44,857 bases of DNA, taken from contig CAWKEA010000009.1 of assembly GCA_963848635.1 (NCBI GenBank), positions 1 through 44,857 of the forward strand. Reading direction: 5' to 3'. The translations under genes and the position numbers were made by a program. Shown here piece after piece: positions 1 through 32,098 of this stretch; position 1 is the first letter of the stretch, and each line of letters begins with the position of its first letter. Below the pieces are notes generated by a model, which saw nothing but the letters and a program-made list of their open reading frames with translations, made no database searches and was not told the DNA's origin. Source of the DNA: an uncultured bacterium (lineage in GTDB: Bacteria > Patescibacteriota > Minisyncoccia > Phycocordibacterales > PALSA-1337).

Positions 1-192
1 CGCAAAAAAGTGAAATCGCATTCCGTGGGCGAAATCGCACCATCGCAAACCACAAGTGGAGGGCGGGGCGGAATTCCTCCCCAGACCCCTCCTTCCGCCC
101 CGCCCGCTTCATTGCTGGATTTTTTTGGGATTTTCGGAATCAGGGCAAAGGGCGCACGAGGCGAAAAAACGAGGACGCGGTCGCGGACGAGT
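1..192 (-). repeat. inverted repeat IR-A, left copy (reverse complement of 1893-2084); encodes the recombinase C-terminal tail
   Basis: By-eye alignment: base x pairs with base 2085-x, with about 3-4 mismatches over ~190 nt. Similarity decays beyond ~192. Confidence 0.9.
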
Positions 193-1553
193 GGGTTCGA
201 ACCGACCTTTTGGAAAAAAGATCGTATTTTCGCAGTATCGGTACTCTCCGCCAAAATAGCGGCCTGTTTACAGTCGTTAAAAAAATTTATCACTGGTTCG
301 AACCGAATCGTCGAGACACGCGACAAACTGCTTAATTTGTCCGTAAGCGTGTGCTTTTCAGTCACAAGTTTGTTTTTAGCATTTTGATATTCTGGAAGCG
401 TCAGCACGTTCTCTAGGTATGCTGTCATAAGTTTGTCTAGCTTGACTTCAATCTCCGAAATTTCAGCATCAACTTTATCCGTCTGATTTTTCAAAAGTTT
501 GTCATTTTCAGTCCGATCTTTTTCAGTCTCGGCAATGAGCCAATCAGCAACGGCATCCGACAAGGAATGTTCCTTCAAAGCCGTCTGAATCTGCGAAGTT
601 ATAATTTCCTCACGGACATATTTCTGTGAGCAGACGCCTTTCCGTTTTGTGCATCGTAAATAGTTATGACCTTTTTGCGTTTCGGTAGTAATGAAGCATC
701 CGCACTCGGCACAGTGAAATAGTCCGCGATACGCATACGACTTCAATTCTTTTGTTTTCGGTTTGGATTTTCGCAACATAACCTCCTGAACATCATCAAA
801 GAGCTTTTTTGAGATGATAGGCTCGTGCTTACCTTCGTAAAATTCTCCACCATAGCGGATCAATCCATGGTAAAAAGGATTTTTCAAAAGATACTGATAG
901 TTAGAAATGGACAGCACCCCATCACCAGAGCCCTTGAGGCCTAGGTCGTTAATTTTTCGGCGTACCTGAGCGAATGTGAAGTTACCCGTGGCATATGCCT
1001 CGAATGTCTTTTTTACTAACACCGATTTCACCGGATCGACAACGATAGTTTTTATCTTTTTATCATTCAAATATCCAAGCGGAGCTTTCTGTGGCCAAAT
1101 TCCGTTTTTGAGTTTTTGCCTGTGCCCGCGTTTGATGTTTTCTGACAGATTGTCGACATAGTATTTACTCTGGCCAAAGGAAATTGAAAGCATGAATTTA
1201 CCCTGCGGAGTGGCGTCAAACCAGAATGTAGGAAATTTCAAGTCGGTGATTTTGCCGGTATCTACAAGATATATAATCCGTCCTCCATCAACTGAATTGC
1301 GAGCGAGTCTGTCTGGATGCCAAGCCAGTATTCCAGAAGCTTCTCCAGCTTCTATACGATCCAGCATATCTGCGAATATCGGCCTACCAGGCACTTTAGC
1401 AGTCTGTTTCTCTATGAAAGTGTCAACGACATCAATTTTCTCCTTTCTAGCAAGCTCGCGTAGCTCCGCTAGCTGATCAGGCAAGCTTCTTATCTGGTGA
1501 TCTTTGTCATCAGTGGATTTTCGAGCATAAATAAAATATTTTTTATCACTCAT
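1..1553 (-). CDS. large serine recombinase; the gene's 3' end runs off the left edge of the window
   Basis: Absent from the ORF track because there is no stop inside the window. Manual minus-strand translation from the ATG (1553-1551) gives MSDKKYFIYARKSTDDKDHQIRSLPDQ...GILAWHPDRLARNSVDGG...FHCAECGCFITTETQKGHNYLRCTKRKGVC...coiled-coil...FQKVGSNPLVRDRVLVF, open down to base 1. It shows the catalytic Ser motif (YARKST), DRLARN and a Cys-rich zinc ribbon typical of large serine recombinases. Confidence 0.85.
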   Translation of the reverse strand, partial: MSDKKYFIYARKSTDDKDHQIRSLPDQLAELRELARKEKIDVVDTFIEKQTAKVPGRPIFADMLDRIEAGEASGILAWHPDRLARNSVDGGRIIYLVDTGKITDLKFPTFWFDATPQGKFMLSISFGQSKYYVDNLSENIKRGHRQKLKNGIWPQKAPLGYLNDKKIKTIVVDPVKSVLVKKTFEAYATGNFTFAQVRRKINDLGLKGSGDGVLSISNYQYLLKNPFYHGLIRYGGEFYEGKHEPIISKKLFDDVQEVMLRKSKPKTKELKSYAYRGLFHCAECGCFITTETQKGHNYLRCTKRKGVCSQKYVREEIITSQIQTALKEHSLSDAVADWLIAETEKDRTENDKLLKNQTDKVDAEISEIEVKLDKLMTAYLENVLTLPEYQNAKNKLVTEKHTLTDKLSSLSRVSTIRFEPVINFFNDCKQAAILAESTDTAKIRSFFQKVGSNPLVRDRVLVFSPRAPFALIPKIPKKSSNEAGGAEGGVWGGIPPRPPLVVCDGAISPTECDFTFL

Positions 1554-1559
1554 GAATAT

Positions 1560-1585
1560 ATTTTACCATTTTTTCGTTAAGTCAA
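1560..1585 (-). promoter_or_regulatory. candidate promoter of the recombinase gene (TTGACT, then TGgTAAAAT extended -10); probably a leaderless or very short-leader mRNA
   Basis: The minus strand reads cTTGACTtaacgaaaaaaTGgTAAAATatattcATG. The -10 ends 6 nt before the ATG. Confidence 0.3.
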
Positions 1586-2453: not shown

Positions 2454-5400
2454 ATGACCCATAAACGCCATGCGATTCACGAGAGAGAGAGAGAGAGAGT
2501 AGAAGCTCCCTCTAAAATAGCTAAAAAGATTTTTCTGTGGAGCACGTTCCTCTTAGGAATTTTTTGTGTATTGGTTTTTCCTACTAAGAGTTTCGCGAGT
2601 AATGTTTGGATTCAGAGAACAGTTCCCGGAACTCCGATAATAAATAGTATTACCAATTCTTCGGACGGTAATACTATTTACTTGGCAACTGCTTCTTCAA
2701 GCACCTCTACCGGATACATTTATATCTCGACAAATAACGGAGTCAGTTTCGCTTCAAGTACCAATAATGCTGGTATTCATAGGTGGGCATCCATTACATC
2801 TTCGGGAGACGGGACTAAGGTATATGCGGCAACAGTGTGTTCAGTCTCTGCGAATTGCGGTGGCACGGCTGATTATGTATACACCTCTACGAATAGCGGT
2901 ATAACATGGAACAACCTTACATCTCTAGGAACAGCTTTAGATTGGGTCAGCGTCTCAACTTCAAATGACGGCACGAAAGTGATTGCGCAAGATAACAGCA
3001 CCCATACGTACGTCTCGGCCAACAGCGGTGCTTCATGGGCCACGACTACAGGTATCGGTAATGGCAATGTGAGCGTGTCTCCTGACGGCACAATGTTCGT
3101 GGCCACCGATAGCTCCGGTAATGTGTACGTTTCGACAAATAATGGCGCATCATGGGCGACCACGACAGCTGCAACTGTGGGAGGAGCAGTTAGATTTGTT
3201 GTTGCTACGAACGGGAATATCATATACAAGAGCGGGTATCCATACGTATATAAGTCAACGAACGGAGGCGCTTCGTGGTCAGCATTGACTGCTGTCGGAT
3301 CTACTACCTGGGCAAACATATCGGCATCTTCCGATGGCAGTCATGTCGTTGTCGCCGGGGCAAACGGCATAGATAACTTTGCATACTTGTCAGCCGACGG
3401 AGGTGCCACATGGACTTTCTATAACAATGGGCTAGGCTGGGTCTTTGCATATGCCCAAGACGGAACAAAAATCGCGGCGGCGGCAGGCAGTGCAGTGTAC
3501 GTCAATAGTCCTGTGCCGACGGTTACTACTGCGGCGGCATCGAGTATAACGGCAACAGGGGTTACTTTGAATGCCACACTCGTCTATGACGGCGGTGCCG
3601 CAGTCTCATCAACAACTGTTGAAGGTTTCAATTATGGTCTTACCACAACGTACGGTTCGGCTACTTCTACTACTGGTACGACAACGCCTGGTGCATGGTC
3701 GCAGACAGTAACAGGATTGACTTGTAATACCGTCTACTATTTCCAGTCATATGCCACCAATATTAACGGAACTGGTAATGGAACCGGGTCATATTTCAAG
3801 ACATTGCCGTGTTCCAGCAATTTTTCAATCGATCGTAGCTCGATACCAACTTCTGCGACGACCGTGATCAATCTGACTGGAAATGCTACCGGCTGGACAG
3901 CCGGAACTCCGGGCACTCCAACATTTTCAGTTTCCGGAGTTACCGGCGCATCGATATCATCTCAAACAGTATCTGATGCGACGCACGCATCGCTATCGAT
4001 AGTTACCGGTACTGCCACGGGTACATTGACAATCACTGATCCGAGTCACAGCACCACACAAACCACTCTCGTGAGCCAAGCCACGAATGTTATTGCGCCA
4101 GATGCAACGGGTATATTTCTCACTCCTGGTAGCTACGATTCAGGGACCTATGTCCAATGGGAACATACTGCCGCAGGGGCAAAGTTTAATTTCACGGGAG
4201 GCATTCTGAAAGCTGATTTGGATGAGAGCCTCTTGGTCAATGTCGGACGAGCCAAAGCCAGTTTCCCGTATATCAACTGGCGCGTTGACGGAGGATCATG
4301 GCAACGTACGCAAGCGTATCCAGATTCAACAACAACGCAAGTAATGACGTTGGCAACGGGGCTATCGACCACAACGACCCATTCGGCTGAAGTCCGTTTC
4401 GAGCAAGGGTCTGAAACTGATACTTGGACTCCACAGGATGCAGTCAACCTTACAGGCTGGGAAGTACAGAGCGGAAGCGCGATATCCGCGCCTTCGCCTG
4501 AAGCCAGCACTACTGTTTCAGCCGCGGGCGTTTCGTTGGGACTTCGACCGAAACGCATGATGATTTTTGGAGATTCGATAACGCGCGGATACAATGCAGA
4601 GTCCAGTTCGACCGCACCAGGACAAGATCTTACAGGGGCAGGACATACATTCGCGCTTGATAGCTGGGGACCATTATTTGCTCAAGCCCTAGACGCTGAA
4701 GTAGGCATCGTAGCATATAGCGGTCAAGGTTGGCGTCACTTTATGACCAATGGCGGACCGGCATTCCCCGTCTCATATCCGATGTATGATTCTACGCACT
4801 CAAGGACGATGCCCTCAAATCTTGACTATGTGGTTGTAGCGCTGTCGGTAAATGATAGTACCGCATATAACATGGCCAATACTGTCTCTACGTGGCTTAC
4901 AAATGTCCGTGCCGCAGTAGGAGCAAGCACGTATATATTTGTAGCGCCAAACTTAGGCGATGTAAGTTCGACAATCGTCAACAATGTCGACTCGGGAGTA
5001 AATGCATATAAAGCGGCAAATCCCACAGATACGAAGGTATTCATAATTGATCCGGGAGGTAATTTCATGGGCACGCCACCAGGGACATATTGGTATCAGG
5101 GCACCGTGCATCCTAACAATCTCGGTCATGCCCTGCTCGCTTCTGACTTAGCAACTTTGGCCGTTGCCGATGTGCCGACGGTCATATCTAGCATCGCCTC
5201 AAGCACTACGAGCACGAGTGTTACGATCACCTGGACGACAGACAGGGCGGCTACGAGTCTTGTAAATTATGGCACGACCGCATCATATACAGCCTCGTCA
5301 ACATTCAGCGGAAGTCTGACACTCTCTCACAGCGTGACCATATCTAGTCTCTCGCCTTTGACGACGTATCACTTCCAGATATCTTCGATCGATACCGCTT

Positions 5401-7436
5401 CATCAACAGCAACCTCCAGCGATCTTACATTCACGACACCCTCTAGTGTCACTGCTCCGACGCTTCTAGTGCCCACATTCTCCGGCGTGACCCAAACCGG
5501 AGCTACCGCTTCAAGCACGATCAGCGCGACAGGAGGAGCAAACGCGACTGTTGAAGGTTTTGCTTGGGGCACAAATACCTCGTATGCTCTCGGCACCACT
5601 TCATCGAGCGGTTCATTCGGAATATCGGATTTCTCGAATGCCACAACCACTCTTACTTGCGGCACTACTTACCATGTCCGCGCTTACGCCACCAACTCCG
5701 GAGGTACAGGATATAGCTCTGACGCAAGCACGACAACAAGCCCATGCAATGCCACGACATATACTTTCACTGGACCATCGAATGGTAACGCCGGGAGCGC
5801 ATCTACCATCTTCACCGTGACGCCAAATGGGCCATATAACAGCACGATCACCCTGACACCGACGGGAGGTTTCGGCCTTTCTCCAACTATATTGACATTC
5901 TCAAACTCAAGCGCTCCGCAAACTTTCACCATCACCCCGACAGTCGCAGGCTCGATCACTCTCACACCTACCGACAATGGAGGACTGACTGATGCTTCAC
6001 CGCTCACCTATACGGCTAACGCTGTTGTTCCCGGACAACCGACTTCTGTCACCGCCGCAACCTCAACTCCGAATCAGGCCACGGTCACCTTCTCCGCTCC
6101 AGGATTTAATGGCGGTTCTACCATCCTCTACTACCTCGCCTCCTCAACCCCAGGCAATTTCACGGGAACTTCAAGCGGTGCCCCCATCGTCGTCTCGAGC
6201 CTCACGAACGGCACTTCATATACCTTCGCCGTCTACGCCGTGAATGCGGCCGGCACGAGCACTCCTTCTTCGGCTTCCAATGCAGTGACACCTATCGGCG
6301 TGCCCGGCGCTCCGACGGGAGCGGTCGCCACAGCCGGCAATACCCAGGCGGTAGTTAACTTTAGCGCACCAGGGTCGACCGGCGGCAGTCAGATCACCGG
6401 CTATACAGTGACATCAAGTCCTGTCGGAGGCACTGATACTAATGCAGGTACGACTGCTCTCACCCATACCGTGACGGGCCTCGCTAATGGAACGCCGTAT
6501 ACTTTCACTGTGACTGCCACCAATGTCGTCGGTACAGGAAGTGCTTCCAGCGCATCATCTCCGGTTACTCCTTCTACTGTTGCGGCCGTGTCAACTAACG
6601 TGGTTACAAACATCGCTTCAACCAGCGCGACATTGAGCGGTTCGATCACTTCGACCGGAGGTGCCGATGCTAATCAACATGGTTTTGCTTACAGCACCGA
6701 TCAGAATCTGATAAGTTCCGTTTCCACGACGACGTTAGGTTCGTTCACAGGTACGGGTACCTTCACGAGTTCCGTGACCGGACTTACGTCTAATACCACC
6801 TATTATGTGCGCACATATTCCGTCAATGCTTCAGGCACGACCACTGGCTCAATCATCTCCTTCCTGACCTTGCCTGCGGTTCCAACCATGACCACTCAAA
6901 CTCCAACAGCTGGATCAGGCATCTTCTTCACGGCTAATGGAAACATCACCGCGACTGCTGTGAATGCCACTGCCCGTGGCTTCGTCTATGGCACTACTCT
7001 GGCATACGGAGCGACCACAACCTCAAGCGGCTCATTCGGCACGGGCGCCTACACCGCTACGATCACCGGCCTTACTTGTAACACGCTCTATCATATCGCT
7101 TCATACGCCGTGAATACCGGAGGCACAGGCTATGGTTCTGATCAAACTATCACGACCGGTGTATGTACGAAGCCGACATTGACCGTGCAAGTGGCTTCTG
7201 GCATTACGACGACTGCGGCTACTCTAAACGGCTCCATGACCGCTGACGGCAACGCCTCCTCTACAGTTGAAGGATTTAATTGGGGTACGGACACCAGCTA
7301 CGGTCAGGTAGCCTCCGCCAGCGGAACCTTCGGCATTGGATCTTTCTCGCAATCGTTGTCTAGTCTGACTTGCGGCACGACATATCACTTCCAAGTCTAT
7401 CGCTACCAACATCGCAGGACAGGGGACCTCGACTGA
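2454..7436 (+). CDS. giant cell-surface protein: N-terminal signal anchor, BNR/Asp-box (sortilin-like) beta-propeller repeats, SGNH/GDSL hydrolase domain and many FN3-like repeats. It is truncated by a frameshift and continues in ORF 7549-7938.
   Basis: Repeated S-x-(D/N)-x-G-x-(S/T)-W motifs (YVSTNNGASW, YTSTNSGITW, YKSTNGGASW, LSADGGATW). GDSL block MMIFGDSITRGYN and block V GTVHPNNLGH. At least 10 repeats of the type VEGFxWG...Y....S..G.F.....GLTCxTxYHxxAYATNxxGTGY, plus classic FN3 (PGxPTxVTA...FTV.A.N..G). Confidence 0.85.
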   Translation: MTHKRHAIHERERERVEAPSKIAKKIFLWSTFLLGIFCVLVFPTKSFASNVWIQRTVPGTPIINSITNSSDGNTIYLATASSSTSTGYIYISTNNGVSFASSTNNAGIHRWASITSSGDGTKVYAATVCSVSANCGGTADYVYTSTNSGITWNNLTSLGTALDWVSVSTSNDGTKVIAQDNSTHTYVSANSGASWATTTGIGNGNVSVSPDGTMFVATDSSGNVYVSTNNGASWATTTAATVGGAVRFVVATNGNIIYKSGYPYVYKSTNGGASWSALTAVGSTTWANISASSDGSHVVVAGANGIDNFAYLSADGGATWTFYNNGLGWVFAYAQDGTKIAAAAGSAVYVNSPVPTVTTAAASSITATGVTLNATLVYDGGAAVSSTTVEGFNYGLTTTYGSATSTTGTTTPGAWSQTVTGLTCNTVYYFQSYATNINGTGNGTGSYFKTLPCSSNFSIDRSSIPTSATTVINLTGNATGWTAGTPGTPTFSVSGVTGASISSQTVSDATHASLSIVTGTATGTLTITDPSHSTTQTTLVSQATNVIAPDATGIFLTPGSYDSGTYVQWEHTAAGAKFNFTGGILKADLDESLLVNVGRAKASFPYINWRVDGGSWQRTQAYPDSTTTQVMTLATGLSTTTTHSAEVRFEQGSETDTWTPQDAVNLTGWEVQSGSAISAPSPEASTTVSAAGVSLGLRPKRMMIFGDSITRGYNAESSSTAPGQDLTGAGHTFALDSWGPLFAQALDAEVGIVAYSGQGWRHFMTNGGPAFPVSYPMYDSTHSRTMPSNLDYVVVALSVNDSTAYNMANTVSTWLTNVRAAVGASTYIFVAPNLGDVSSTIVNNVDSGVNAYKAANPTDTKVFIIDPGGNFMGTPPGTYWYQGTVHPNNLGHALLASDLATLAVADVPTVISSIASSTTSTSVTITWTTDRAATSLVNYGTTASYTASSTFSGSLTLSHSVTISSLSPLTTYHFQISSIDTASSTATSSDLTFTTPSSVTAPTLLVPTFSGVTQTGATASSTISATGGANATVEGFAWGTNTSYALGTTSSSGSFGISDFSNATTTLTCGTTYHVRAYATNSGGTGYSSDASTTTSPCNATTYTFTGPSNGNAGSASTIFTVTPNGPYNSTITLTPTGGFGLSPTILTFSNSSAPQTFTITPTVAGSITLTPTDNGGLTDASPLTYTANAVVPGQPTSVTAATSTPNQATVTFSAPGFNGGSTILYYLASSTPGNFTGTSSGAPIVVSSLTNGTSYTFAVYAVNAAGTSTPSSASNAVTPIGVPGAPTGAVATAGNTQAVVNFSAPGSTGGSQITGYTVTSSPVGGTDTNAGTTALTHTVTGLANGTPYTFTVTATNVVGTGSASSASSPVTPSTVAAVSTNVVTNIASTSATLSGSITSTGGADANQHGFAYSTDQNLISSVSTTTLGSFTGTGTFTSSVTGLTSNTTYYVRTYSVNASGTTTGSIISFLTLPAVPTMTTQTPTAGSGIFFTANGNITATAVNATARGFVYGTTLAYGATTTSSGSFGTGAYTATITGLTCNTLYHIASYAVNTGGTGYGSDQTITTGVCTKPTLTVQVASGITTTAATLNGSMTADGNASSTVEGFNWGTDTSYGQVASASGTFGIGSFSQSLSSLTCGTTYHFQVYRYQHRRTGDLD
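2480..2498 (+). repeat. (GA)9 dinucleotide microsatellite inside the 5' coding region of the giant gene
   Basis: cacGAGAGAGAGAGAGAGAGAGta encodes HERERERV. It sits between the start codon and the signal-anchor helix. Confidence 0.95.
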
Positions 7437-7947: not shown

Positions 7948-8520
7948 ATGGATGACGATCAAACTCCAGATGTAGCAGTCACACCTACGGCAGAAGCCCA
8001 AACTCCTGAAACACCCATTTCTAGCCAGCCCACAGCATCCACGCCAGTCGATATGCCACCAGAGGCCCCAGAATCGCCTACAAACGCTTCTACAAACGTT
8101 CCTGTAGAAAGTCAAAATGAAGGGTTAAATCAGCCAGAAAGCGAGGTGCCGGAATCATCGAATGAGGCTCCAAATTTGCAGCCAGTTCCCGTTGAGTCAG
8201 CGCCAGCTCCTGCGTCCGCGCCGGCGTCACTGACTCCGTTAGCACCACAGCCGCAGTCGCCGGCGCAACAAGATCAAACCGGCTTCATTCGCGCGTTGCT
8301 CGCCAAAGCTCAAGCTAAAATCCAGTCCAACAAACAGAAGAAGTTCGACAAAATCATCCAATACGCACAGAAAATGAAAATTATTGCCAACGAAGATATG
8401 CAGAAGCTTTTGCACATCTCCAGCGCTACTGCGACCCGATATCTGGTCAAACTAGTCCAGCAAGGTCGTCTGGCTCGCGTGGGGAACCCCCGCGATGCCA
8501 AATATCAATTCATGCGCTAG
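7948..8520 (+). CDS. hypothetical protein with a P/S/T/E/Q-rich disordered N-terminal half and a C-terminal winged-helix HTH
   Basis: The C-terminus reads IANEDMQKLLHISSATATRYLVKLVQQGRLARVGNPRDAKYQF, an HTH/wHTH pattern as seen in Fic-associated or DeoR-like DNA-binding domains. Confidence 0.6.
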   Translation: MDDDQTPDVAVTPTAEAQTPETPISSQPTASTPVDMPPEAPESPTNASTNVPVESQNEGLNQPESEVPESSNEAPNLQPVPVESAPAPASAPASLTPLAPQPQSPAQQDQTGFIRALLAKAQAKIQSNKQKKFDKIIQYAQKMKIIANEDMQKLLHISSATATRYLVKLVQQGRLARVGNPRDAKYQFMR

Positions 8521-8524
8521 AAAA

Positions 8525-8554
8525 CTTGTGGCTCATGTCCACCAAATGAGCCAC
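8525..8554 (+). repeat. hairpin repeat hp1 (cttgtggctcat-gtccaccaa-atgagccac), direct repeat of 8750-8779
   Basis: 9-bp perfect stem immediately after the stop of ORF 7948-8520, so it may double as a terminator stem. Confidence 0.8.
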
Positions 8555-8582
8555 GTGCGTTTCTGATTTACCACCGAACTCG

Positions 8583-8725
8583 GTCGAGAAGCGGCCGACC
8601 TCCGCTTCTTCCATCAACCGTTCTTCGCGTCCGGCGGAATGTCGGTGCGGCGAAATGCAATGAAGCCGCACGGACTGACGCTGGACGCGTCACATTCCTC
8701 CGTTGAAGCGGAAGTGGGCCGCTTC
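8583..8725 (+). repeat. structured element E2, same family and same orientation as E1
   Basis: The 5' 47 nt has 43/47 identity to E1 1659-1705. The last 22 nt is identical to the E1 3' end. The ~68 nt core is unrelated to E1 but self-complementary (cgcgtcc/ggacgcg; gtcggtgcggc/gccgcacggac). Confidence 0.75.
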
Positions 8726-8749
8726 AAGCTTCAAAACCTGTGCTAAAAT

Positions 8750-8779
8750 GCTTGTGGCTCAATTCCACCAATTGAGCCA
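8750..8779 (+). repeat. hairpin repeat hp2 (cttgtggctcaat-tccacc-aattgagccac)
   Basis: Direct repeat of hp1, on the other side of E2. Confidence 0.8.
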
Positions 8780-8782
8780 CAC

Positions 8783-9032
8783 CCTTCCCCCCAATCACCA
8801 ATCCGGCGCACAGCCAAAACAAATAGTGAGGGCGGACGGAGTCCTTCCCCCACACCCCCAGGCCTCCGTCCGCCCTCTCCACCTTTTTGTGATTGCGATG
8901 CGATCAGAAGATTGAGCCGGCGGAGGCAAAAAACAGTGGAGCGAAGCGACTCCGCATTTCATTCACGAAACAATCACGCCTGCGGATTTTCAGCGAAAAA
9001 AGTTCGAACTTCAAGTAAAAACTGCCGCAAAA
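8783..9032 (-). repeat. inverted repeat IR-B, right copy
   Basis: Reverse complement of 2079-2330. Carries the same 14-bp hairpin (8828-8841 with 8864-8877), followed by a T5 run on the + strand. Confidence 0.9.
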
Positions 9033-9392
9033 TAATGAACCCGAGCTATGCGAGGGTGAATTTATTTTGCGTGAGAGAGCGATGCGACTGCTCGCATCGC
9101 GTGATGGGATTCGAAAAGGTTCTCCCAAATTTTCGAAAAGTGAGCGTAGCGAGCTTTGAGAAAATGGGAAACCTGTACTGAAGCCGTAGGCTTCGAATCC
9201 CATCCTCTCCGCACTTGGATTTTGGTATCGGATGACCCTGAGGGCTATGTAAAACAAGGGTCGTTTGGAATCGTTCGAATCCCGCAAAGGTACACCCCTC
9301 TGCGGGATTCGAACTTTTAGCTGAAGTATCCTCTTTTAGAGCAGACATCATCCTTTAAATATAGTCAAAAATATGCTAGGTTAAGTCCAATT

Positions 9393-9953
9393 ATGCTTCT
9401 AAAAAGAATCAGAGAAATATCGAATATCGGAAGATTCTGCAGCTGCAAAGGCATCGCTGGTATTGAATTTTCTCCAGTGACGATAATCTTTGCCAATAAT
9501 GGAAATGGCAAAAGTACCTTTACGAGCATCCTCAGATCATTTCAAACGGGAAACAACAATATCCTCATCGGCAAAAAGACCTTGGGTAGCAGCGGTTCTA
9601 AAAAAGTCGAGATTGACTTTGAGGACGCAGGAAAAACACTGACGGCAAAGTTTGAGAACAAGAAATGGAATAGCACCCCAGATGAGAAGATTCATATTTT
9701 CGATACCAAGTTCATAGCTGAGAATGTCTACGATGGAGAGAATATGGATGATGACCACAAGGCAAACATGCATCGTGTCGTTGTCGGCGCCGAAGGTAAA
9801 AAATATGCCGAAGCAGTAAATGATTTCATGGGGCAGGTGAAAAAATGCGAGCAAACCAAAAAAGATTCTTCTTTACAATACTCCGCATCTCCATTCTCCA
9901 GAATATATACGATTGAAAAATTCATCGCGTTGTCAAAGAATACACATGTTTGA
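9393..9953 (+). CDS. AAA_13-type (RloC/PrrC-like) ATPase, N-terminal fragment with Walker A
   Basis: VTIIFANNGNGKSTF is a Walker A motif. The N-terminal layout matches AAA_13 ATPases. It ends at a stop overlapping the next ORF in another frame. Confidence 0.7.
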   Translation: MLLKRIREISNIGRFCSCKGIAGIEFSPVTIIFANNGNGKSTFTSILRSFQTGNNNILIGKKTLGSSGSKKVEIDFEDAGKTLTAKFENKKWNSTPDEKIHIFDTKFIAENVYDGENMDDDHKANMHRVVVGAEGKKYAEAVNDFMGQVKKCEQTKKDSSLQYSASPFSRIYTIEKFIALSKNTHV

Positions 9954-11671
9954 AAGATATTGAGGGAAAAAGAAAGGAGCTACAGTTCGCCAATCAATTC
10001 AATAAACCCGCTGACCTGAGACTCAAGTCTCCTGACCTTTCAGCGATCACGACAACACTAGAGAAGAAGATTGATTCCTTGCATGACGACGTAGAAAAAA
10101 AGATAAAGAAACATGTGGAAAAGCATACATCTGTACCCGATGTCGGCCTACCTGTACTCAATACCATCAACAATATCAGAAAGGGTGATGCATGCCCTTT
10201 CTGCGGGCAAGACACGTCAGCGGTCTCCGATCTCATGGATGCCTACCGAGTGTACTTCGATAAATCGTACCAAGACCTCCAAAAGGAAATCGCTGAGACT
10301 CTAGCTGAATTCAAGAGTTGGGATATTGACGGCGAATTAAAGATTCTTCTCCAAGAGATCGAGGAATGGCATAAAATATTAAATAGCCAAGACTTATATG
10401 ACAAGCTCGTAGCACGTATCAAGGCAAGTGCTCTCAAGAAAAATAAGGCTAATTTATTGCTACAGATAGAAAAGAAAAGTAAGGATTTCAATTATAAGGT
10501 GCCTCAAGGTTCGATTGATCTTGTCTCTGAAAGTATATCTCAAGTCCAAACCGAGATTGCTGCATACAATGCCACTATCGGCGCTTTCAAGGGAAAGATT
10601 AGCAGTAAAAAGCCTGATGAGCTCGAAAAAGAATTACAGATACTCGAAATCGCAAGGGATCGCCATTCTACGAAGTGGGACACTTTCTGTGGAAATTATA
10701 TTAAAAATGAAGAGGCTACCAAGAAAATAAAAGCCGGCCGTAAAAAAGCTATGGACGATTTGTCGGCATATTCTCAAAAGACTTTTGCAGCATATCAATC
10801 TTCTATCAATACTGTACTGGAAAATATCGGGGCTGACTTCAAGATAAAGGATTTGTCGGAGCAGAAAGACCTCAGAAAAGCAGAGGCCATATTCTGCGGT
10901 TTTGCTCTGGAATTTTTTGGTCAACACAAGGTCGACATCTCTAATTCCGATGATAAGCCGCATTTCAAAAATACCCTCAGTGAGGGCGATAAAAGCTCCT
11001 TGGCTTTCGCGCTCTTTATTTCAATCCTTTCACACAATGACAAACTCAAAGGCTGCATGGTTGTCTTCGATGATCCTATCTCTAGCTTTGATGCTGACAG
11101 GAAAAAAGCTACGGCAAAGTTGCTATTTTCACTTACGAATAGCAAAGGAGATAAACCAGCTCAGATCATTGTGCTTACTCATGAATCTGGCTTCTTGGTC
11201 AGACTGAATAAAGAATTCGGCGGTGACGCTCTTTACCTGAAAATAGCACCCAATGGTCTGAGTGGAGTAATCAAGCAGAGCAATATCGAGCGACTCGATG
11301 TGTATGAGGCCTTCCTAAAGCCGGGAGCTTTTGAGGCGCTAGATAAAATCAAGAAATGCCTCGATGGTACCACCGTCATCGATAAGAAATCTCATAGCGA
11401 ATGCCGTACGATCCTAGAGAATGCCCTAGAGGCGAAATATTATCTTGAACTTAAGGACAATATCTCGAAACATGCCGGATTGGGTGGCTATATCGATACT
11501 CTTACTACGGCAGGTCTAATGAGTCAGGCGCTTAGTACTGAATTCAAAAAACTGCTCCCCGATTTACACGAGCCACACCACAGTACTTCAGATGCTAGCA
11601 CTCAAGCTAATTCGGATGGAGATATCAAAAATATTCTAAAAACCTCACTCAGTCTATTAAAGAAGTTGTAG
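9950..11671 (+). CDS. AAA_13-type (RloC/PrrC-like) ATPase, C-terminal 573 codons: zinc-hook-like CPFC in a coiled coil, ABC signature, Walker B, and a possible anticodon-nuclease-like tail
   Basis: GDACPFCGQD; long coiled-coil region; LSEGDKSSLAFALF (signature-like); CMVVFDDPISSFD (Walker B); VLTHES (H-loop). The C-terminal CRTILENALE...LPDLHEPHHS resembles the R-x3-E...H pattern of PrrC/RloC nuclease domains. The only available start is TTG. Confidence 0.7.
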   Translation: MKDIEGKRKELQFANQFNKPADLRLKSPDLSAITTTLEKKIDSLHDDVEKKIKKHVEKHTSVPDVGLPVLNTINNIRKGDACPFCGQDTSAVSDLMDAYRVYFDKSYQDLQKEIAETLAEFKSWDIDGELKILLQEIEEWHKILNSQDLYDKLVARIKASALKKNKANLLLQIEKKSKDFNYKVPQGSIDLVSESISQVQTEIAAYNATIGAFKGKISSKKPDELEKELQILEIARDRHSTKWDTFCGNYIKNEEATKKIKAGRKKAMDDLSAYSQKTFAAYQSSINTVLENIGADFKIKDLSEQKDLRKAEAIFCGFALEFFGQHKVDISNSDDKPHFKNTLSEGDKSSLAFALFISILSHNDKLKGCMVVFDDPISSFDADRKKATAKLLFSLTNSKGDKPAQIIVLTHESGFLVRLNKEFGGDALYLKIAPNGLSGVIKQSNIERLDVYEAFLKPGAFEALDKIKKCLDGTTVIDKKSHSECRTILENALEAKYYLELKDNISKHAGLGGYIDTLTTAGLMSQALSTEFKKLLPDLHEPHHSTSDASTQANSDGDIKNILKTSLSLLKKL

Positions 11672-11684
11672 CCACATGTTGTAC

Positions 11685-12152
11685 TTATCTGATGAATTCT
11701 TTGAGCAGGGTCAGATATTTTTCTTGTAGCTCTTTACTCACCATTTTTTCAGATAGTCGCATTGGAGTAACGTTGTCTTTCATCAAGTCAGTACAAAAAT
11801 CAAAATAAAATCCTGAGGGTGTTGCGATAAATATGTGGGCAAGTTTCCAACGCTCATAAATTTCTGTCGCATTCTTTTTGATGTCATCCATATCGACATG
11901 TGATCTATACTTCACCTCAACCAAAGAGACGGATTTCGGGTTATGCGATACGAGTGCAAAATCGGGGGCGTTCCTTACGTTTTCCAGAAGCTTCTTGTAT
12001 TCAGGTGTCCCTGTGTACTGCATTAGTTCGGGGACGATTGTCTCATAGCCAAATGGGATAACAGTGTAGTTGCCTGTGTCACGGAACATTTGGTCAAAAA
12101 TAAGTTCAGCTATTTTTCCCTTAATGAGTTGTTTGGAGAAGTCTTTTTGCAT
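11685..12152 (-). CDS. small PD-(D/E)xK-fold nuclease-like protein
   Basis: GKIAELIFDQMF ... PDFALV ... VSLVEVKYRS fits the E...PD...(D/E)xK restriction-endonuclease-like motif order. Confidence 0.55.
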   Translation of the reverse strand: MQKDFSKQLIKGKIAELIFDQMFRDTGNYTVIPFGYETIVPELMQYTGTPEYKKLLENVRNAPDFALVSHNPKSVSLVEVKYRSHVDMDDIKKNATEIYERWKLAHIFIATPSGFYFDFCTDLMKDNVTPMRLSEKMVSKELQEKYLTLLKEFIR

Positions 12153-12254
12153 GATGTTTATTATACCTCATCATATAATAAAAGTATGAGGGAGCATCCT
12201 TGCCCGCCCTCTTTTTTATTGACCTTACCCTCGCCTCGGCATAGAATAGATTTC

Positions 12255-13850
12255 ATGTCTAATCCTGATACAAATAATGATACAGAAAATCCCCCTGTTA
12301 TTTTGGTAGACGGCAGCCTTTCAAAAGAGCGCTGTGAATTTTTGCTCTCATACCTAGGAAGCGAGAGCGATAAGCTTGAACGAAAGGAGTTCGGAGTTCC
12401 AGCTTCGTCATCAGAAAAGAGCCAGCTGGCCAAGGCCATAATTGCCATGGCTAATTCTGATGGCGGATATATTCTCCTTGGCATTAATGATGCCAAGGTT
12501 GTAAAAGGTATCAGGAACGTCGATCTGGATCCAGCTAAGATTAATGATCTCGCATCTTCTTTTGCCAAACCAGAAATAAAGAATCTGACCACAGTCGTCT
12601 ATGAAAAGGACGCCCTCAAGGTAGGTATCATCTTTGTGCCTCCGAGCGACAATGTTCCACATATTACGATCAAGGAGAGTGATAAATTGAATAAGAATGT
12701 TATCTATGTAAGGCACTCTGGACAGTCTGAGCCTGCGAACCATGAGGACATGGAAAAGCTGATACTGAAGGCGGTTATAAAAAGACAGAAAGAATTGATG
12801 CGTCATCTTGAGGAGACAGAGTTGCAAAAGGATGTCCGCATGATCAAGGAGCATCTACTTGGGAAAAAGGAGGCCGAGAAGCCTGATTTTTTGGTGGTCG
12901 ATGAAGAAGCTTTTGTGGCTAAGATTGATGCGCTGTTCACTGATGAAAATATCTCATCGATTAAAAAGGTCATAAAGCAGCTTTCCAAGGAGATAGTTTC
13001 GGTGTGGAAGTCCACCAAGGGCATGGATAAATCTATCGTGCTCGAGACGAAAGTCCTACGCTTCATTCCGTTGCTCAACAAGCTCACCTACGTGATGATA
13101 TTGGCGGTTGAAAATAAGATGCACGAGAAAATATTTCCTGACTGGGCGGAGGCCGTTCGTATCATATATGAATTATCAAATAAGAAGGATCTCGGCATTT
13201 CACAGATCGATGAATGGGTAACACAAGGAAACCAATTCATCAAAGCGAAAGATCACCTGACGTATACGGTTCCCGAAAAAGAAGTCATTAGCAGACTGCA
13301 TATTTTGTCGGCCTACGCTTTTAAACGCAAGGAGTATTCTTTGATTAAAAAGATAGCTGATATAGAGGTTGAGACGGTTCATGGGAACAAGTCCTATAAT
13401 GAGGCTGTCATGATGCACCCCAATTATTCACATGGTAGTGGTGAAGGAAACCTCGTCACGCTTTTTGATGAGGCAAGGGAGTTGATGACACAGAATGTAA
13501 TCTTTTTTAATTTTTTCGATAATGAGATTGAGGAGAGTTTGGACAGTCTACTTAGGGCAGATCTGCTTATTGGGTTTTCCTATTCCTTAGTTAGTCAAGT
13601 TAGACATAGCGGACATCGTCATTTTATTAATTTTGCTCGTTTTTATCCGTCGCGAGTCTGGTCGCTCATTGAAAGCATGCGTGACAATCAAAAGTATCTG
13701 ACTGATGGATTCCCAACCTATACCTTGGAGCAATTAAAAAAATACATCAATGAAGTCATTGATTTCGCGAATAAAGCGTACCCAATGATAAGCGACTGGG
13801 GTGGCTATACTTACAAGGATCTTTTTCCAGATAAAGCTGCCACTCAGTAG
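12255..13850 (+). CDS. Schlafen/AlbA_2-like (divergent AAA, putative nucleic-acid-binding) domain protein with an unknown ~350 aa C-terminal region
   Basis: SESDKLERKEFGV...SQLAKAIIAMANSDGGYILLGINDAKVVKGI matches the AlbA_2 core (E.K....l.k.i.AfaN..GG.l.iGv.d.g.v.G). The ORF is open from 12090, but that part overlaps the divergent gene, so ATG 12255 (MSNPDT) is preferred. Confidence 0.6.
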   Translation: MSNPDTNNDTENPPVILVDGSLSKERCEFLLSYLGSESDKLERKEFGVPASSSEKSQLAKAIIAMANSDGGYILLGINDAKVVKGIRNVDLDPAKINDLASSFAKPEIKNLTTVVYEKDALKVGIIFVPPSDNVPHITIKESDKLNKNVIYVRHSGQSEPANHEDMEKLILKAVIKRQKELMRHLEETELQKDVRMIKEHLLGKKEAEKPDFLVVDEEAFVAKIDALFTDENISSIKKVIKQLSKEIVSVWKSTKGMDKSIVLETKVLRFIPLLNKLTYVMILAVENKMHEKIFPDWAEAVRIIYELSNKKDLGISQIDEWVTQGNQFIKAKDHLTYTVPEKEVISRLHILSAYAFKRKEYSLIKKIADIEVETVHGNKSYNEAVMMHPNYSHGSGEGNLVTLFDEARELMTQNVIFFNFFDNEIEESLDSLLRADLLIGFSYSLVSQVRHSGHRHFINFARFYPSRVWSLIESMRDNQKYLTDGFPTYTLEQLKKYINEVIDFANKAYPMISDWGGYTYKDLFPDKAATQ

Positions 13851-13866
13851 GAAATAGGCCGTATTA

Positions 13867-14343
13867 TCAACCGATGGTGATGATCTTGTTCGTCACCTTG
13901 ATCTTCGACTTAAAGCACCCCATAAGCTCGCGTTTCTCCTCGTTGGTGCCATCGTGCAGGATATATTTGGCATAGGTCTTGAGGTCGATTTCTCTATGTT
14001 TTGAGGTCGGGTCATTGATACCTAGCACTCCTCGGTTGAATCTGTTGTGTCGTTTCAGCTCCTCATTGAATTTTATCTCCACACCCGTCTGATTGAGGTC
14101 GATTTGATCCATAAGCTTCACGAGCTGTTCCGTCAATTCTTCTTCTCGCAGATACTGGGCCTTGCATGTACGATCCTTCGATCTGCCACATCCGTAGTAG
14201 ATGTATTTGGCGACAGTACCATCTTTCAGTTGCTTGTATTTCTCCTCGGCAGTGATACCTGAGTCACAGTGTCCGCATACCATGAGCTTGGTGAAGGCGA
14301 ACTCATGACTTTGATTGTTCCGAAAGTAAAAATTTCTTTACTT
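13867..14343 (-). pseudogene. 5'-truncated large serine recombinase remnant (zinc ribbon + coiled coil + C-terminal tail only)
   Basis: FAFTKLMVCGHCDSGITAEEK...YIYYGCGRSKDRTCKAQYLREEEL... is collinear with residues ~285-end of the intact recombinase at 1-1553. The reading frame opens only at 14343 and there is no catalytic N-terminal domain. Confidence 0.75.
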
Positions 14344-14417
14344 TACTCTGTTTTTGGAGTAGCGTACCCGTCAGTAATCGGACATTGAAATAAACCAACA
14401 AAAGAAAGGATTTTCCT

Positions 14418-25211: not shown

Positions 25212-25244
25212 GATTCCCTCCTTAATCGGAGGGAATCGTTTTTA
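25212..25244 (+). terminator. rho-independent terminator after secY; it overlaps the 3' end of the convergent toxin gene
   Basis: gattccctcc-ttaatc-ggagggaatc, followed by gttttta. Confidence 0.7.
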
Positions 25245-25650
25245 TGGAAGAAAGTATCCCTTCGACTTTATTTCTTAGTACAATGAATTCTTCCTGTTTT
25301 AGCCTAAAGATGAGGCGCAACAGCCTCTTGTTGCTTATGATTTTAATTTGAGATGTCAGTACGGTCTGTAATTTACCCCGATACCTCATCGTGTAGAATT
25401 CATTTTCTGTTCTTATTGTGCTTGTTATCGGCAATGCCCACAAGAGATCATCGTTCACTTTCTTTAAAACAATGATCGGCCTTTCGAAAAGCTCATTTTT
25501 ACCATCTATTTCATGACCAATATTAACTCCAAGGGCAGCCCACCAGACTTCTCCCTCCAGAAAGAAAAAGTCCTCAGGAGGGATGCGTTCCTCTATGAGT
25601 TTTTTGTGCCTATTCCATTCGTTATATTTTTTGACATGCTTTTTACCCAT
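25222..25650 (-). CDS. PemK/MazF-family toxin-like protein (orphan)
   Basis: FFLEGEVWWAALGVNIGHEIDGKNELFERPIIVLKK...LWALPITST matches the MazF/PemK core pattern (GeiWw..lG.N.G.E..GK....RPvlVl.....l...PlTs). Confidence 0.65.
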   Translation of the reverse strand: MGKKHVKKYNEWNRHKKLIEERIPPEDFFFLEGEVWWAALGVNIGHEIDGKNELFERPIIVLKKVNDDLLWALPITSTIRTENEFYTMRYRGKLQTVLTSQIKIISNKRLLRLIFRLKQEEFIVLRNKVEGILSSIKTIPSD

Positions 25651-28346: not shown

Positions 28347-28844
28347 ATGAAAAGAAAAAATGTAAAAGGCGGTTTCACCCTCATCGAATTGCTCGTCGTC
28401 ATCGCCATCATCGGTATATTGTCCTCGATCGTCTTGGTCAGCTTGCAGTCAGCTAGAAAGAAGGGTACTGATACGCGTGTTATCGCAGACGTTCAGCAGA
28501 CTCGCGACGCTCTTGAGACTGGCTATACTGGTACTTATTATCCTGATTTGGGCAACAATAACTCGAATGCTGTGGTTGCAAGTAATTCGTCGTGTACTAT
28601 CGCCAATTGGAACAATGACACTGCCTCTCAAGGTTCAGCATTGAATACGCAACTCGGAGATGCTTGCGCACAGGGCGGCACAAATGATATTAGTATATTT
28701 GTAGCACCTGTTACTGCCTATAATACCGTAAATGCCTACGCTATCTATGGTAAGCTTGTCAGTAGCAGTAACTATTTCTGCATCGATTCAACAGGCAAGA
28801 CTAATCCTGCTACGAGCACCAACGCAGGTATCACCTGTCAGTAG
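28347..28844 (+). CDS. type IV pilin-like protein
   Basis: MKRKNVKGGFTLIELLVVIAIIGILSSIVLVSLQSARKKG: G/F cleavage site and Glu at +5. Confidence 0.88.
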   Translation: MKRKNVKGGFTLIELLVVIAIIGILSSIVLVSLQSARKKGTDTRVIADVQQTRDALETGYTGTYYPDLGNNNSNAVVASNSSCTIANWNNDTASQGSALNTQLGDACAQGGTNDISIFVAPVTAYNTVNAYAIYGKLVSSSNYFCIDSTGKTNPATSTNAGITCQ

Positions 28845-28934
28845 TCTTTCTCGAAAATTTAGTTTAAACAAAACCCCTTACGAGGGGTTTTGTTTTTATA
28901 TCTTGCAAAGTCATGCTATATTGGTTTGACTTAT

Positions 28935-30713: not shown

Positions 30714-30720
30714 GACATCT

Positions 30721-31800
30721 ATGAAACTTTCCATTGTCATTCCAGTTTTCAATGAAAAAGGAACCCTGCCTTTGATCTTGAAGAGGATCGCCGATGCAGA
30801 TCTCATCGATGGATTTGAAAAAGAGATAATCATCGTCGACGATTTTTCCACAGAAAGGGTGATTTTACCGCCGGATACTAAAGGCCATTCATCCATTACT
30901 TACAAAATCATTCGGCATGAGATGAATCGCGGCAAGGGAGCGGCAGTGCGGACAGGGTTTTTAGAAGTCACTGGAGGTTTTGTCGTTATACAAGATGCCG
31001 ACCTTGAATATGATCCAGCTGACTATAATAGGCTTTTGCCGCCGCTCGTTCAAGGAGAAGCTGATGTCGTCTATGGTTCGAGATTTTCGAATGGTGCGAG
31101 GCCGACAGGCATGTCTAAAAAGAATTATCTGGCGAATCGCTTTCTGACGGTTTTTTCAAATATTTTGAGCGGGATGAAGATAACGGATATGGAGACATGT
31201 TACAAGATGATGACGCGAAAAGCAGTCGATTGCATCTCACGTAGGCTCACTTCGGATAGATTTGGCATCGAACCTGAGATCACCGCTCTTGTTAGAAAGA
31301 TGCGGATTGTCGAGGTGCCAGTAAGCTATGTCGGGCGCACTGCCGAAGAGGGCAAGAAGATAGGCTGGTTCGATGGGATTGAGGCGATCGTAAAAATCAT
31401 TAAATTCAATTTTCCGTTCTCTGACTCCCGCATCATCCGTTTCGTCATCTCCGGCACTATTGGCGCCGTCACGGATCTATTCCTGCTATGGTTCCTCACA
31501 GCCGCTTTCGGGATTTGGTATCTCGCATCGGCCATCATTGCTTTTATCCTGTCATTTGTCGTCAGCTTCTTCTTGCAGAAATTATGGACGTTTAAAAATA
31601 GGGAAGCGGATAGGACGCATGTTCAGGCAGGCATATATCTTGCTGTCACGCTCTGCAATCTCGGCGTCAATACGCTCCTTGTGTATGTCTTCGTGCGGTA
31701 TTTTTCCCTCCATTACCTGTTGGCACAGATCATCGCGTCAGTCCTCATCGCTTTTGAGAGCTTTTTCGCTTACCGTGAGATCGTATTCAAGAAGAAATGA
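30721..31800 (+). CDS. GT2 polyprenyl-phosphate glycosyltransferase (DPM1/ArnC-like) fused to a C-terminal GtrA-like membrane domain
   Basis: LSIVIPVFNE, IIIVDDFSTE, VIQDADLEYDP; C-terminal RFVISGTIGAVTDLFLLWFL... with four TM helices. Confidence 0.8.
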   Translation: MKLSIVIPVFNEKGTLPLILKRIADADLIDGFEKEIIIVDDFSTERVILPPDTKGHSSITYKIIRHEMNRGKGAAVRTGFLEVTGGFVVIQDADLEYDPADYNRLLPPLVQGEADVVYGSRFSNGARPTGMSKKNYLANRFLTVFSNILSGMKITDMETCYKMMTRKAVDCISRRLTSDRFGIEPEITALVRKMRIVEVPVSYVGRTAEEGKKIGWFDGIEAIVKIIKFNFPFSDSRIIRFVISGTIGAVTDLFLLWFLTAAFGIWYLASAIIAFILSFVVSFFLQKLWTFKNREADRTHVQAGIYLAVTLCNLGVNTLLVYVFVRYFSLHYLLAQIIASVLIAFESFFAYREIVFKKK

Positions 31801-31829
31801 AGGGTTTTCTTATGACGACGATTTGATGG

Positions 31830-31997: not shown

Positions 31998-32098
31998 AAA
32001 GAATCCAAAAAGGTGTCCTTTTCAGGTTTTGTGAGTTTAGATTCTCTTTATAATTATTTTAACCTTTCTTAATCTCGCATCGGTATAATGCTTGGATT

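Follow-up and report, generated by a model that had tools for sequence, protein, structure and literature searches.

RloC, the wobble-nucleotide-excising anticodon nuclease of Geobacillus kaustophilus, shares with PrrC an ABC head marked by Walker A, an LSxGxK signature, Walker B/D-loop and a linchpin His. In RloC a long helical insert bearing a CxxC zinc hook divides this head, and the protein, about 760 aa in length, carries a conserved C-terminal R-x3-E followed by a downstream His. RloC genes are typically unlinked to a type I R-M locus (PMC2610378). PDC-S06 is a PADLOC candidate predicted from defence-island context, and our literature search returned no report of a tested system of this type. 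Prokaryotic Schlafen tRNases (PMC13462974), cited for the Schlafen family assignment made below, place an N-terminal Schlafen/AlbA_2 effector domain with an E-x4-E motif ahead of a presumed sensor; in Cash (CRISPR-associated Schlafen), that sensor is a fused Csx15/Rossmann-like domain for cA4 and the gene is linked to type III CRISPR. Archaeal Hjc (PDB 2eo0, 2wcw) is a nuclease of about 150 aa with a PD-(D/E)xK core and an E...D...ExK pattern. Finally, a terminal recombinase, variable cargo and site-specific insertion are common to SCCmec with its CcrB, the XisF-type fdxN element, serine-integrase prophages and tRNA-adjacent islands. Classical targeting of tRNA genes is carried out by tyrosine integrases.

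Here we describe a locus that resembles each of these in part. Positions 9192-14417 of the window (the whole 44,857-nt stretch of DNA analysed) probably represent the immobilised remnant of a small integrative element of Paceibacterota, moved by a large serine recombinase and adjacent to tRNA genes, mostly tRNA-Ser. This agrees with the first-pass annotation, which had called the region an immobilised integrative element. The region differs from classical tRNA islands in that a serine recombinase clade is associated with the 3' ends of tRNA-Ser, tRNA-Gln and tRNA-Glu, and these elements, at 3.6-7 kb, are very small relative to known serine-recombinase elements.

Composition, extent and host of the island

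GC content is 41.8% across 9192-14417 versus 49.9% in the remaining window, and this region is the minimum among 397 sliding 5.2-kb windows; the lowest such window without overlap (43.3%) lies at 28 kb. The profile stays at 0.41-0.43 over about 9300-14400, with flanks of 0.52-0.56. GC3 of the island genes is 0.44-0.47 compared to 0.60-0.73 in pyrD, purCE, secY and others, and tetranucleotide divergence in 2.5-kb windows peaks at 9-11.5 kb. The first-pass annotation had placed an AT-rich island at ~9390-14340 and proposed a windowed GC and k-mer profile as a check; the compositional break is present in GC, GC3 and tetranucleotides alike. Its suggestion of a CPR-like host is likewise supported by SecY, which shares 90% identity or more with a SecY labelled 'Candidatus Paceibacterota bacterium'. 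Because a pyrD metagenome scan recovered no empty site (relatives were at most 74% identical, with other upstream genes and no tRNA-Ser), the boundaries of the island are drawn from its composition and from its homology with related elements. We found no convincing direct or inverted att repeats flanking the window island or the related elements on contigs L094 and L002.

The left junction (9192..9231, + strand) consists of a tRNA-Ser-like 3' remnant followed by GTATCGG. The remnant is 22 nt long (9192-9213) and retains the T-loop, the 3' T-stem strand, the 3' acceptor strand and the discriminator; the 5' T-stem strand is unpaired. ARAGORN and Rfam searches over 8400-9500 identified no tRNA and no other RNA family, only miRNA-like hairpin matches at chance level. 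The junction aligns collinearly with the tRNA 3' end and spacer that precede the ATPase gene on contigs L093 and L094, which carry its two closest relatives with readable flanks. The conserved GTATCGG motif, here at 9225-9231, lies 11-12 nt past a sequence ending in CCGCA in five contexts (the window, L093, the second tRNA-Ser of L094, L004 and L002) and is absent after the tRNA-Ser(GCT) of L094, a tRNA that is not adjacent to the element; we regard it as a candidate recombination site. Left of the island, 8520-9190 is structured and rich in TTCGAA. Within the island, an element-borne spacer (9232..9392, + strand) leads up to the ATPase start. It contains two hairpins, at 9232-9260 and at 9273-9314, the latter followed by a T run, as evidenced by an inverted repeat (I4) with 94% complementarity, and it is collinear with two hairpins in positions 1-211 of L093.

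At the other end lies a large serine recombinase remnant (13867..14313, - strand) comprising a zinc ribbon and a C-terminal coiled coil. Its only Pfam match is Zn_ribbon_recom, and its best NCBIfam matches are CcrB and XisF. Homology over 13873-14313 corresponds to residues 293-440 of 442-aa relatives, such that the last third is kept and the N-terminal 292 residues, with the Resolvase and Recombinase domains, are missing, as the first-pass annotation had recognised in describing a fragment that lacks its catalytic domain. Identity of the remnant is 78% both with the L093 recombinase (residues 294-440) and with that from L004 (residues 293-439). A tblastn search of the window with five full-length relatives revealed no further pieces of this gene; it also located a separate serine recombinase paralog at 555-1541. 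The right junction (14314..14417, strandless) is a deletion scar that runs from the truncated recombinase to the start of pyrD at 14418. GC climbs across it, and pyrD is intact, its alignment with relatives beginning at residue 1.

Related elements

On both L093 and L094, a full serine recombinase gene sits directly adjacent to the ATPase gene, and the RloC-like ATPase is the sole cargo of a 3.6-kb, two-gene element; these are the closest relatives of the island. L093 shares 71% DNA identity with the window over 9392-11630 and 75% over 13889-14313, with 3 bp between its ATPase and recombinase stop codons. Between the same two stop codons, the window copy holds an extra 2.2-kb insert with the nuclease and Schlafen genes. 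The ATPase-recombinase pair of L094 follows two tRNA-Ser genes at a distance of 120 bp, and a tRNA 3' end lies just upstream of the L093 ATPase gene, at the contig edge. Downstream of such recombinases, a convergent tRNA bounds the cargo in L002, L094, L086 and L044, and L004 has a partial tRNA end at its contig edge. The shared layout runs from a tRNA 3' end through a spacer and the cargo to a recombinase gene whose transcription points back at the tRNA. In the window, the recombinase has lost its catalytic two-thirds along with the att side, the tRNA is reduced to 22 nt and the ATPase gene is split; the nuclease and Schlafen reading frames are intact.

Cargo genes

By its sequence, the ATPase is an RloC-like protein that corresponds to PDC-S06, and its gene, as is typical of RloC, is unlinked to a type I R-M locus. 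The 759-codon ORF that had been reported for it does not exist; unlike RloC, the gene is frameshifted and occupies no single uninterrupted frame. ORF 1 (9393..9953, + strand, 186 aa) encodes the N-terminal ABC head with Walker A (GNGKST, K40 at 9510-9512) and terminates at a TGA that the frameshift brings about. In a different frame, ORF 2 (9950..11671, + strand, 573 aa) supplies the coiled coil, whose zinc hook is CPFC (10193-10204). It also carries the linchpin H597, Walker B (VVFDDP) and LSEGDK as the ABC signature, and its C-terminal domain contains R672-x3-E676 (11405-11419) together with H730 (11579-11581). The deletion of one base, at codon 186, separates Walker A from the remainder of the gene: gTTTg at 9948..9952 (+ strand) has one base fewer than the homologs, seen as a single-base gap at catgt-ttgaaa in the DNA alignment with L093, L094, L095 and L097. 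Intact homologs measure 758-762 aa, and the fused translation of both ORFs aligns to them gap-free. We rejected a programmed frameshift, as there is no slippery heptamer, intact homologs are unshifted, and the equal length (573 aa) of the homolog P0134 is set by a contig end.

ORF 1 matches positions 1-180 of the PDC-S06 model PDLC04895 (E 6e-31) as well as Pfam AAA_13/AAA_23, and ORF 2 matches positions 228-759 (E 3.5e-45) and AAA_13 (E 7e-23). Intact homologs match the same model end to end (2-763 of 784, E 4e-65 to 8e-68), and two sources label ATPase homologs 'wobble nucleotide-excising tRNase'. In alignment A2, GNGKST, LSEGDK, VVFDDPxSSFD and THE are invariant or nearly so. The two features highlighted in the first-pass annotation, a CPFC zinc-hook-like motif and an R-x3-E...H tail, are similarly conserved. 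C268-P-F-C271 is invariant in 10/10 sequences of A2, with a weak sequence match of query residues 258-328 to the Rad50 hook region (6zff). R672, E676 and H730 are invariant in A2, the tail as a whole, with H726 and H729, being invariant or nearly so. This pattern is likened to the R692/E696/H737 triad of RloC, though the spacing from E to H is 54 residues here compared to 41 in GkaRloC and 32 in PrrC. Since the match to Pfam AAA_13 extends no further than position 581 of the 713-position model and the PADLOC PrrC model matches the ATPase part only, the putative C-terminal homology to the RloC nuclease domain rests on this motif pattern.

The most interesting part of the island is an intact 531-aa Schlafen/AlbA_2 protein (12255..13850, + strand) with a C-terminal domain of no known family. 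Directly upstream of its gene is a sigma-70-like promoter, TTGACC-17-TAGAAT (12219..12247, + strand; 10/12 positions match), and because DNA similarity to L089, the closest Schlafen relative (75% DNA identity), begins at 12213, the promoter stretch is common to the L089 gene copy. The protein had been annotated as Schlafen/AlbA_2 from sequence inspection, and PF04326 confirms this over the full model (1-118) with 63.7 bits against a cutoff of 25.3 (E 3e-17). The N-terminal nuclease domain spans about residues 37-165 and contains E37-x4-E42 (12363-12380), which is kept in 4/4 homologs that have the N-terminus; by pattern, these residues correspond to E17/D22, which are required in CbCash (PMC13462974). 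Sequence matches in the PDB are to SLFN8/5/14/12 and CbCash, the CbCash alignment comprising the Schlafen domain alone. The protein differs from Cash in lacking a fused Csx15/Rossmann-like cA4 or other nucleotide sensor domain, and also in its lack of linkage to type III CRISPR: a PADLOC run on the island genes detected no Cas protein. The C-terminal helical domain (about 330 aa) has no match in Pfam, NCBIfam, PADLOC or PDB sequences, and PHROGs likewise matches the Schlafen part and not this domain. An AF2 model of the protein has a mean pLDDT of 59, with C-terminal helices at 70-94, and the C-terminal domain returned no fold match at E<0.1. The family is rare: a search of 1.84 billion yielded 13 representatives at E<=1e-30, with roughly 30 distant representatives of full length, and a 5.8-billion-protein search gave four homologs.

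Between these genes, on the opposite strand, lies a 155-aa nuclease (11685..12152, - strand) with an Hjc-like fold. The first-pass annotation had named it a PD-(D/E)xK nuclease and, on its invariant residues and modelled fold, it is assigned to that superfamily, which is defined by a D...(D/E)xK motif on a restriction-endonuclease-like fold. The predicted catalytic residues E16, D64 (11961-11963), E79 (11916-11918) and K81 (11910-11912) are invariant in alignment A1, and the AF2 model (pLDDT 85.8) has an alpha-beta core. Archaeal Hjc resolvases rank first among the PDB folds (E 2e-4, TM 0.38-0.45), with RecU and PA endonuclease also matched. It departs from Hjc in its identity of 12-16%, in an extra helical segment at residues 35-60, in the absence of any PDB-sequence or Pfam match above threshold, and in its distribution, mostly in Patescibacteria and often near serine recombinases. 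Pfam gave only a sub-threshold TnsA-like match, and PDB sequences, NCBIfam, PADLOC and PHROGs gave none. We collected 207 homologs, the loci that carry them being mostly from Patescibacteria MAGs. Beside the recombinases of the closest relatives (>=74% identity), cargo is variable and includes a C5 methylase, Lactamase_B, APH, a transposase and ParB; in L002, a Shedu SduA_C gene lies past the nuclease, towards the tRNA. In the wider family there is no conserved partner, and a tRNA within 300 bp is weakly enriched (6/82 loci versus about 2 expected).

A patchwork of separate modules

The first-pass annotation suggested that the ATPase, nuclease and Schlafen genes form a linked three-gene set with anti-phage functions. 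Their arrangement is compact, all lying within 4.5 kb with 13 bp between the convergent stops and a 102-bp divergent promoter region, and all three are nuclease-type proteins. A single cooperative, unnamed anti-phage system is nonetheless very improbable. Homologs of the ATPase, at 56-77% identity, are found unaccompanied by the other two genes. The Schlafen gene is found at 0/82 genome loci of nuclease homologs, and an ATPase near the nuclease at 1/82 (L044), where it takes the form of AAA_13-like ORFs that are weak, split and some 8 kb distant. The contigs that carry Schlafen homologs (L001, L089, L090 and L091, 1.8-3 kb) contain neither nuclease nor ATPase; in L089 a different upstream gene replaces the nuclease, and the homologs of L090 and L091 abut an N6 methyltransferase and a tyrosine integrase, respectively. 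PADLOC, run on the island genes, matched the ATPase to PDC-S06, which it lists as a single-gene candidate, and the ATPase gene is frameshifted while the other two are intact. The first-pass annotation had itself named the failure of homologs to co-localise elsewhere as the observation that would count against the set, and its proposed neighbourhood analysis yielded just that, with no recurrent co-localisation of the three. What stands of the anti-phage claim is that two of the three families, RloC-like/PDC-S06 and Schlafen, are tied to anti-phage tRNA cleavage; the shared system does not. The island is an ordinary patchwork of three unrelated nuclease-type genes that travel as separate modules. 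A tentative alternative for one of them is that the nuclease is not defence cargo but a backbone gene of the element that works together with the recombinase, for example to control excision, in resolution or in maintenance. The nuclease genes of all relatives at >=74% identity share their strand with a serine recombinase gene that lies upstream (27-32 bp away in L006/L007, with two recombinase clades involved); in the family as a whole, no neighbour within 4 kb is more common than a serine recombinase (13/83 loci), and the fold nearest to that of the nuclease is that of Holliday junction resolvases. However, about 70% of loci have no recombinase within 10 kb, the nuclease is missing from the elements on L093 and L094, serine recombinases work without forming Holliday junctions, and the fold match is weak (TM about 0.4).

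That the island is a prophage remnant is similarly hard to credit. ATPase homologs at 56% identity (L095-L097) do have prophage-like surroundings, among them an amidase, methyltransferases, a tyrosine integrase and an S49 peptidase that resembles prohead proteases, but the island has no structural or replication genes, PHROGs matches neither nuclease nor ATPase, IMG/VR viral contigs contain no relatives of any of the three proteins, and the closest relatives are the two-gene elements described above. More open to debate, though still doubtful, is whether the apparent loss of one base in a short T run arose in sequencing or assembly, in which case the RloC-like gene would be intact and active in vivo. 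A lone one-base gap in the homopolymer gTTTg, flanked by two ATPase halves that are otherwise stop-free and highly conserved (77% identity to P0126), is consistent with such an error. Against it, three or four T residues are an untypical error site in short-read assemblies, and real decay is present elsewhere: the recombinase is short by about 880 bp of coding sequence, the tRNA is a remnant, and recombinase decay is seen in related elements too (L003 versus L004).

Proposed function and significance

In the model that we favour, each cargo gene is an independent module with its own distribution, and its activity is extrapolated from what is known of its family. DNA damage or phage interference would be detected by the Rad50-like head and zinc hook of the RloC-like protein, whose C-terminal domain would then cut tRNA anticodon loops and so halt translation. 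For the Schlafen protein, tRNA cleavage would set in once its C-terminal domain is triggered, and the small nuclease may cut DNA, possibly branched. We further put forward, as a speculative pair of linked ideas, that a clade of large serine recombinases in Patescibacteria might target tRNA 3' ends (tRNA-Ser with a GTATCGG-containing site) and shuttle very small, interchangeable single-gene defence cassettes between CPR genomes, and that the intact Schlafen protein might be a self-contained tRNA-cleaving abortive-infection protein whose conserved helical C-terminal domain is a new kind of infection sensor.

Overall, the analysis tells the tempting "new three-gene system" apart from the reading that the data support. 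It also leaves two testable leads, an uncharacterised Schlafen architecture and a mostly Patescibacteria nuclease family without a curated protein-family model. For ultra-small CPR genomes, the island shows immunity gene gain and loss, with these genes arriving as single-gene cassettes on tiny tRNA-side serine-recombinase elements that quickly decay.

Composition and layout of the element

The AT-rich island at 9192-14417 is an immobilised, tRNA-associated serine-recombinase element carrying independent modules. The compositional break proposed in the first-pass annotation is clear in GC, GC3, and tetranucleotide profiles. GC is 0.41-0.43 at ~9300-14400 and 0.52-0.56 on either side; the island averages 41.8% relative to 49.9% in the remaining window and is the minimum among 397 sliding 5.2-kb windows. 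GC3 of its genes is 0.44-0.47 versus 0.60-0.73 for pyrD, purC/E, secY, and others, and tetranucleotide content diverges most in the 2.5-kb windows at 9-11.5 kb. Low GC by itself is not unique to the island because further patches occur at 28-33 kb and at mazF (25.2 kb). The latter is a MazF/PemK-type toxin gene (25222-25650, minus strand; GC 0.39) located between secY and adk. The former (28347-33380, ~43% GC) codes for pilin-like proteins that carry N-terminal methylation motifs, together with a GT2/GtrA glycosyltransferase; in this genome, low GC is therefore not confined to mobile DNA. The SecY of the window is at least 90% identical to one named 'Candidatus Paceibacterota bacterium', and this sequence identity places the host as a Paceibacterota (CPR) bacterium.

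In L093 and L094, contigs with ATPase homologs, 3-5 bp separate the ATPase gene from a convergent large serine recombinase of full length (442-443 aa) downstream. L093 DNA is 71% identical to the window over 9392-11630 and 75% over 13889-14313, and a 2.2-kb insert (11672-13866) separates the ATPase and recombinase stop codons in the window. Because L093 matches both parts, the window represents an L093-type element plus this insert. The recombinase remnant (13867-14313, minus strand) retains only residues 293-440 of 442; it has lost the catalytic and recombinase domains, which bears out the earlier proposal of an immobilised element with an integrase lacking its catalytic domain. Recombinase decay recurs among related elements: the L004 gene is split in L003, and an additional 203-215-aa fragment is present in L006/L007. 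Such elements (L002, L004, and L006) or their immediate surroundings encode further defence or addiction genes, namely Shedu SduA_C, APH, transposase, C5 methylase, Lactamase_B, ParB, PemK, and ParE, and parts of a diversity-generating retroelement (RVT_1, bAvd) lie close to two of them.

A second large serine recombinase (3-1562, minus strand; 35% identity to the island type) features Resolvase, Recombinase, and Zn ribbon domains. It points towards the window start, which makes it likely that its element is located outside the window; (G)TTCGAAC is found at 195, 296, 1832, and 2101. Encoded at 2454-7436 (plus strand) is a Ser/Thr-rich repeat protein of 1660 aa whose start resembles a signal anchor; it is probably a surface protein.

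Association with tRNA genes

Two tRNA-Ser genes lie 120 bp upstream of the ATPase in L094, and a tRNA 3' end opens contig L093; starting at 9192 and moving right, the window aligns collinearly with these tRNA ends and the spacers behind them. The motif GTATCGG, 11-12 nt past the tRNA end, is common to the window, L093, L094, L004, and L002, and is missing after the non-adjacent L094 tRNA. The window tRNA is reduced to 22 nt with the 5' T-stem strand unpaired, and tRNA detection in the 9192 region found none. Across loci with the same recombinase type, cargo is bounded by a convergent tRNA in L002, L094, L086, and L044; the contig edge of L093 and L004 holds a partial tRNA.

Near this junction, TTCGAA occurs six times within 306 bp (9003-9308; P about 1.5e-9), and 9103-9204 has a three-way fold (-48.3 kcal/mol, z -5.5) whose outer stem consists of inverted copies of TTCGAATCCCATC. 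The stretch matched no RNA family and may be a leftover from past recombination at a tRNA T-loop. Further upstream, two 50-nt direct repeats (8505-8554 and 8731-8780; 80% identical) each contain the hairpin GTGGCTCA-N11-TGAGCCAC; the first copy overlaps an HTH gene (7948-8520) at its stop codon. The repeats may act as operators or terminators.

A split ATPase

The gene positions in the first-pass annotation stand; its single 759-codon ATPase is instead two ORFs in different frames, ORF 1 (9393-9953, 186 aa) and ORF 2 (9950-11671, 573 aa). Both match Pfam AAA_13, and they cover positions 1-180 and 228-759, respectively, of the 784-position PADLOC model PDLC04895 (candidate PDC-S06), which intact homologs (758-762 aa; 77, 74, 69, and 64% identity) match end to end. 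The fused translation aligns to these homologs without gaps, and DNA alignment reveals one base missing in gTTTg (9948-9952). Owing to this frameshift, Walker A falls in ORF 1 and the zinc hook, signature motif, Walker B, linchpin His, and C-terminal domain in ORF 2. The missing base may be an assembly error; programmed frameshifting is unlikely, as a slippery site is absent and intact homologs lack the shift. As it stands, the ATPase in this island is probably inactive.

The CPFC hook (C268/C271), R672-x3-E676, and H726/H729/H730 are conserved in the alignment, and the architecture is the same as that described for RloC (PMC2610378). Two sources label homologs 'wobble nucleotide-excising tRNase'. 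Pfam and PrrC profile matches end before the C-terminal domain, and homology to the RloC nuclease domain is putative. From family knowledge, we predict a tRNA-cutting, abortive-infection-type nuclease. Homologs at 56% identity occupy a prophage-like region adjoining two methyltransferases.

Genes of the insert

The intact Schlafen gene (12255-13850, plus strand) is likewise predicted, by family, to encode a tRNA-cutting, abortive-infection-type nuclease. The protein matches PF04326 above threshold; PDB sequence searches recovered SLFN8, 5, 14, and 12, and also CbCash, a cA4-activated tRNA endonuclease (PMC13462974). Its homologs keep the E-x4-E motif. The ~330-aa C-terminal domain matched neither a family nor a fold. 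It is conserved among family members (SGEG, FDEAREL, and LRADFLIGF in close homologs; SGEG still present in a wider 20-sequence alignment) and is a candidate new sensor domain. Homologs are rare: a 5.8-billion-protein search recovered four, and an exhaustive search gave 13 representatives at E<=1e-30.

The nuclease (11685-12152, minus strand; 155 aa) has 207 homologs at 50-79% identity, and its 80 genome loci are mostly Patescibacteria MAGs. E16, D64, E79, and K81 are invariant. The best PDB folds for its confident AF2 model (pLDDT 85.8) are archaeal Hjc resolvases, a weak match (TM about 0.4), and no curated family covering the protein was found in Pfam, PADLOC, NCBIfam, PDB sequences, or PHROGs. 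Family knowledge suggests a DNA nuclease.

Independent modules

The annotation had further suggested that the ATPase, nuclease, and Schlafen genes form a defence system. Gene neighbourhoods do not support such a system and point to independent modules. The four Schlafen homolog contigs lack the nuclease, ATPase, and serine recombinase; one has an adjoining N6 methyltransferase and another a tyrosine integrase. L089, the closest Schlafen relative, shares the gene and 42 bp upstream with the window, and the next upstream gene differs. No Schlafen gene occurs at the nuclease genome loci, and ATPase-like ORFs are near the nuclease in L044 only. This weak, distant AAA_13 homolog (L044:750-2400), ~8 kb away, appears as two overlapping ORFs and so may be a second split copy. 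Nuclease relatives of at least 74% identity all lie downstream of a same-strand serine recombinase with varying intervening cargo. Across the whole family neighbourhoods are variable, and the serine recombinase is the top neighbour within 4 kb (13/83 loci).

Overall, the nuclease often travels with these recombinases, and they may represent a CPR serine recombinase clade that targets tRNA.
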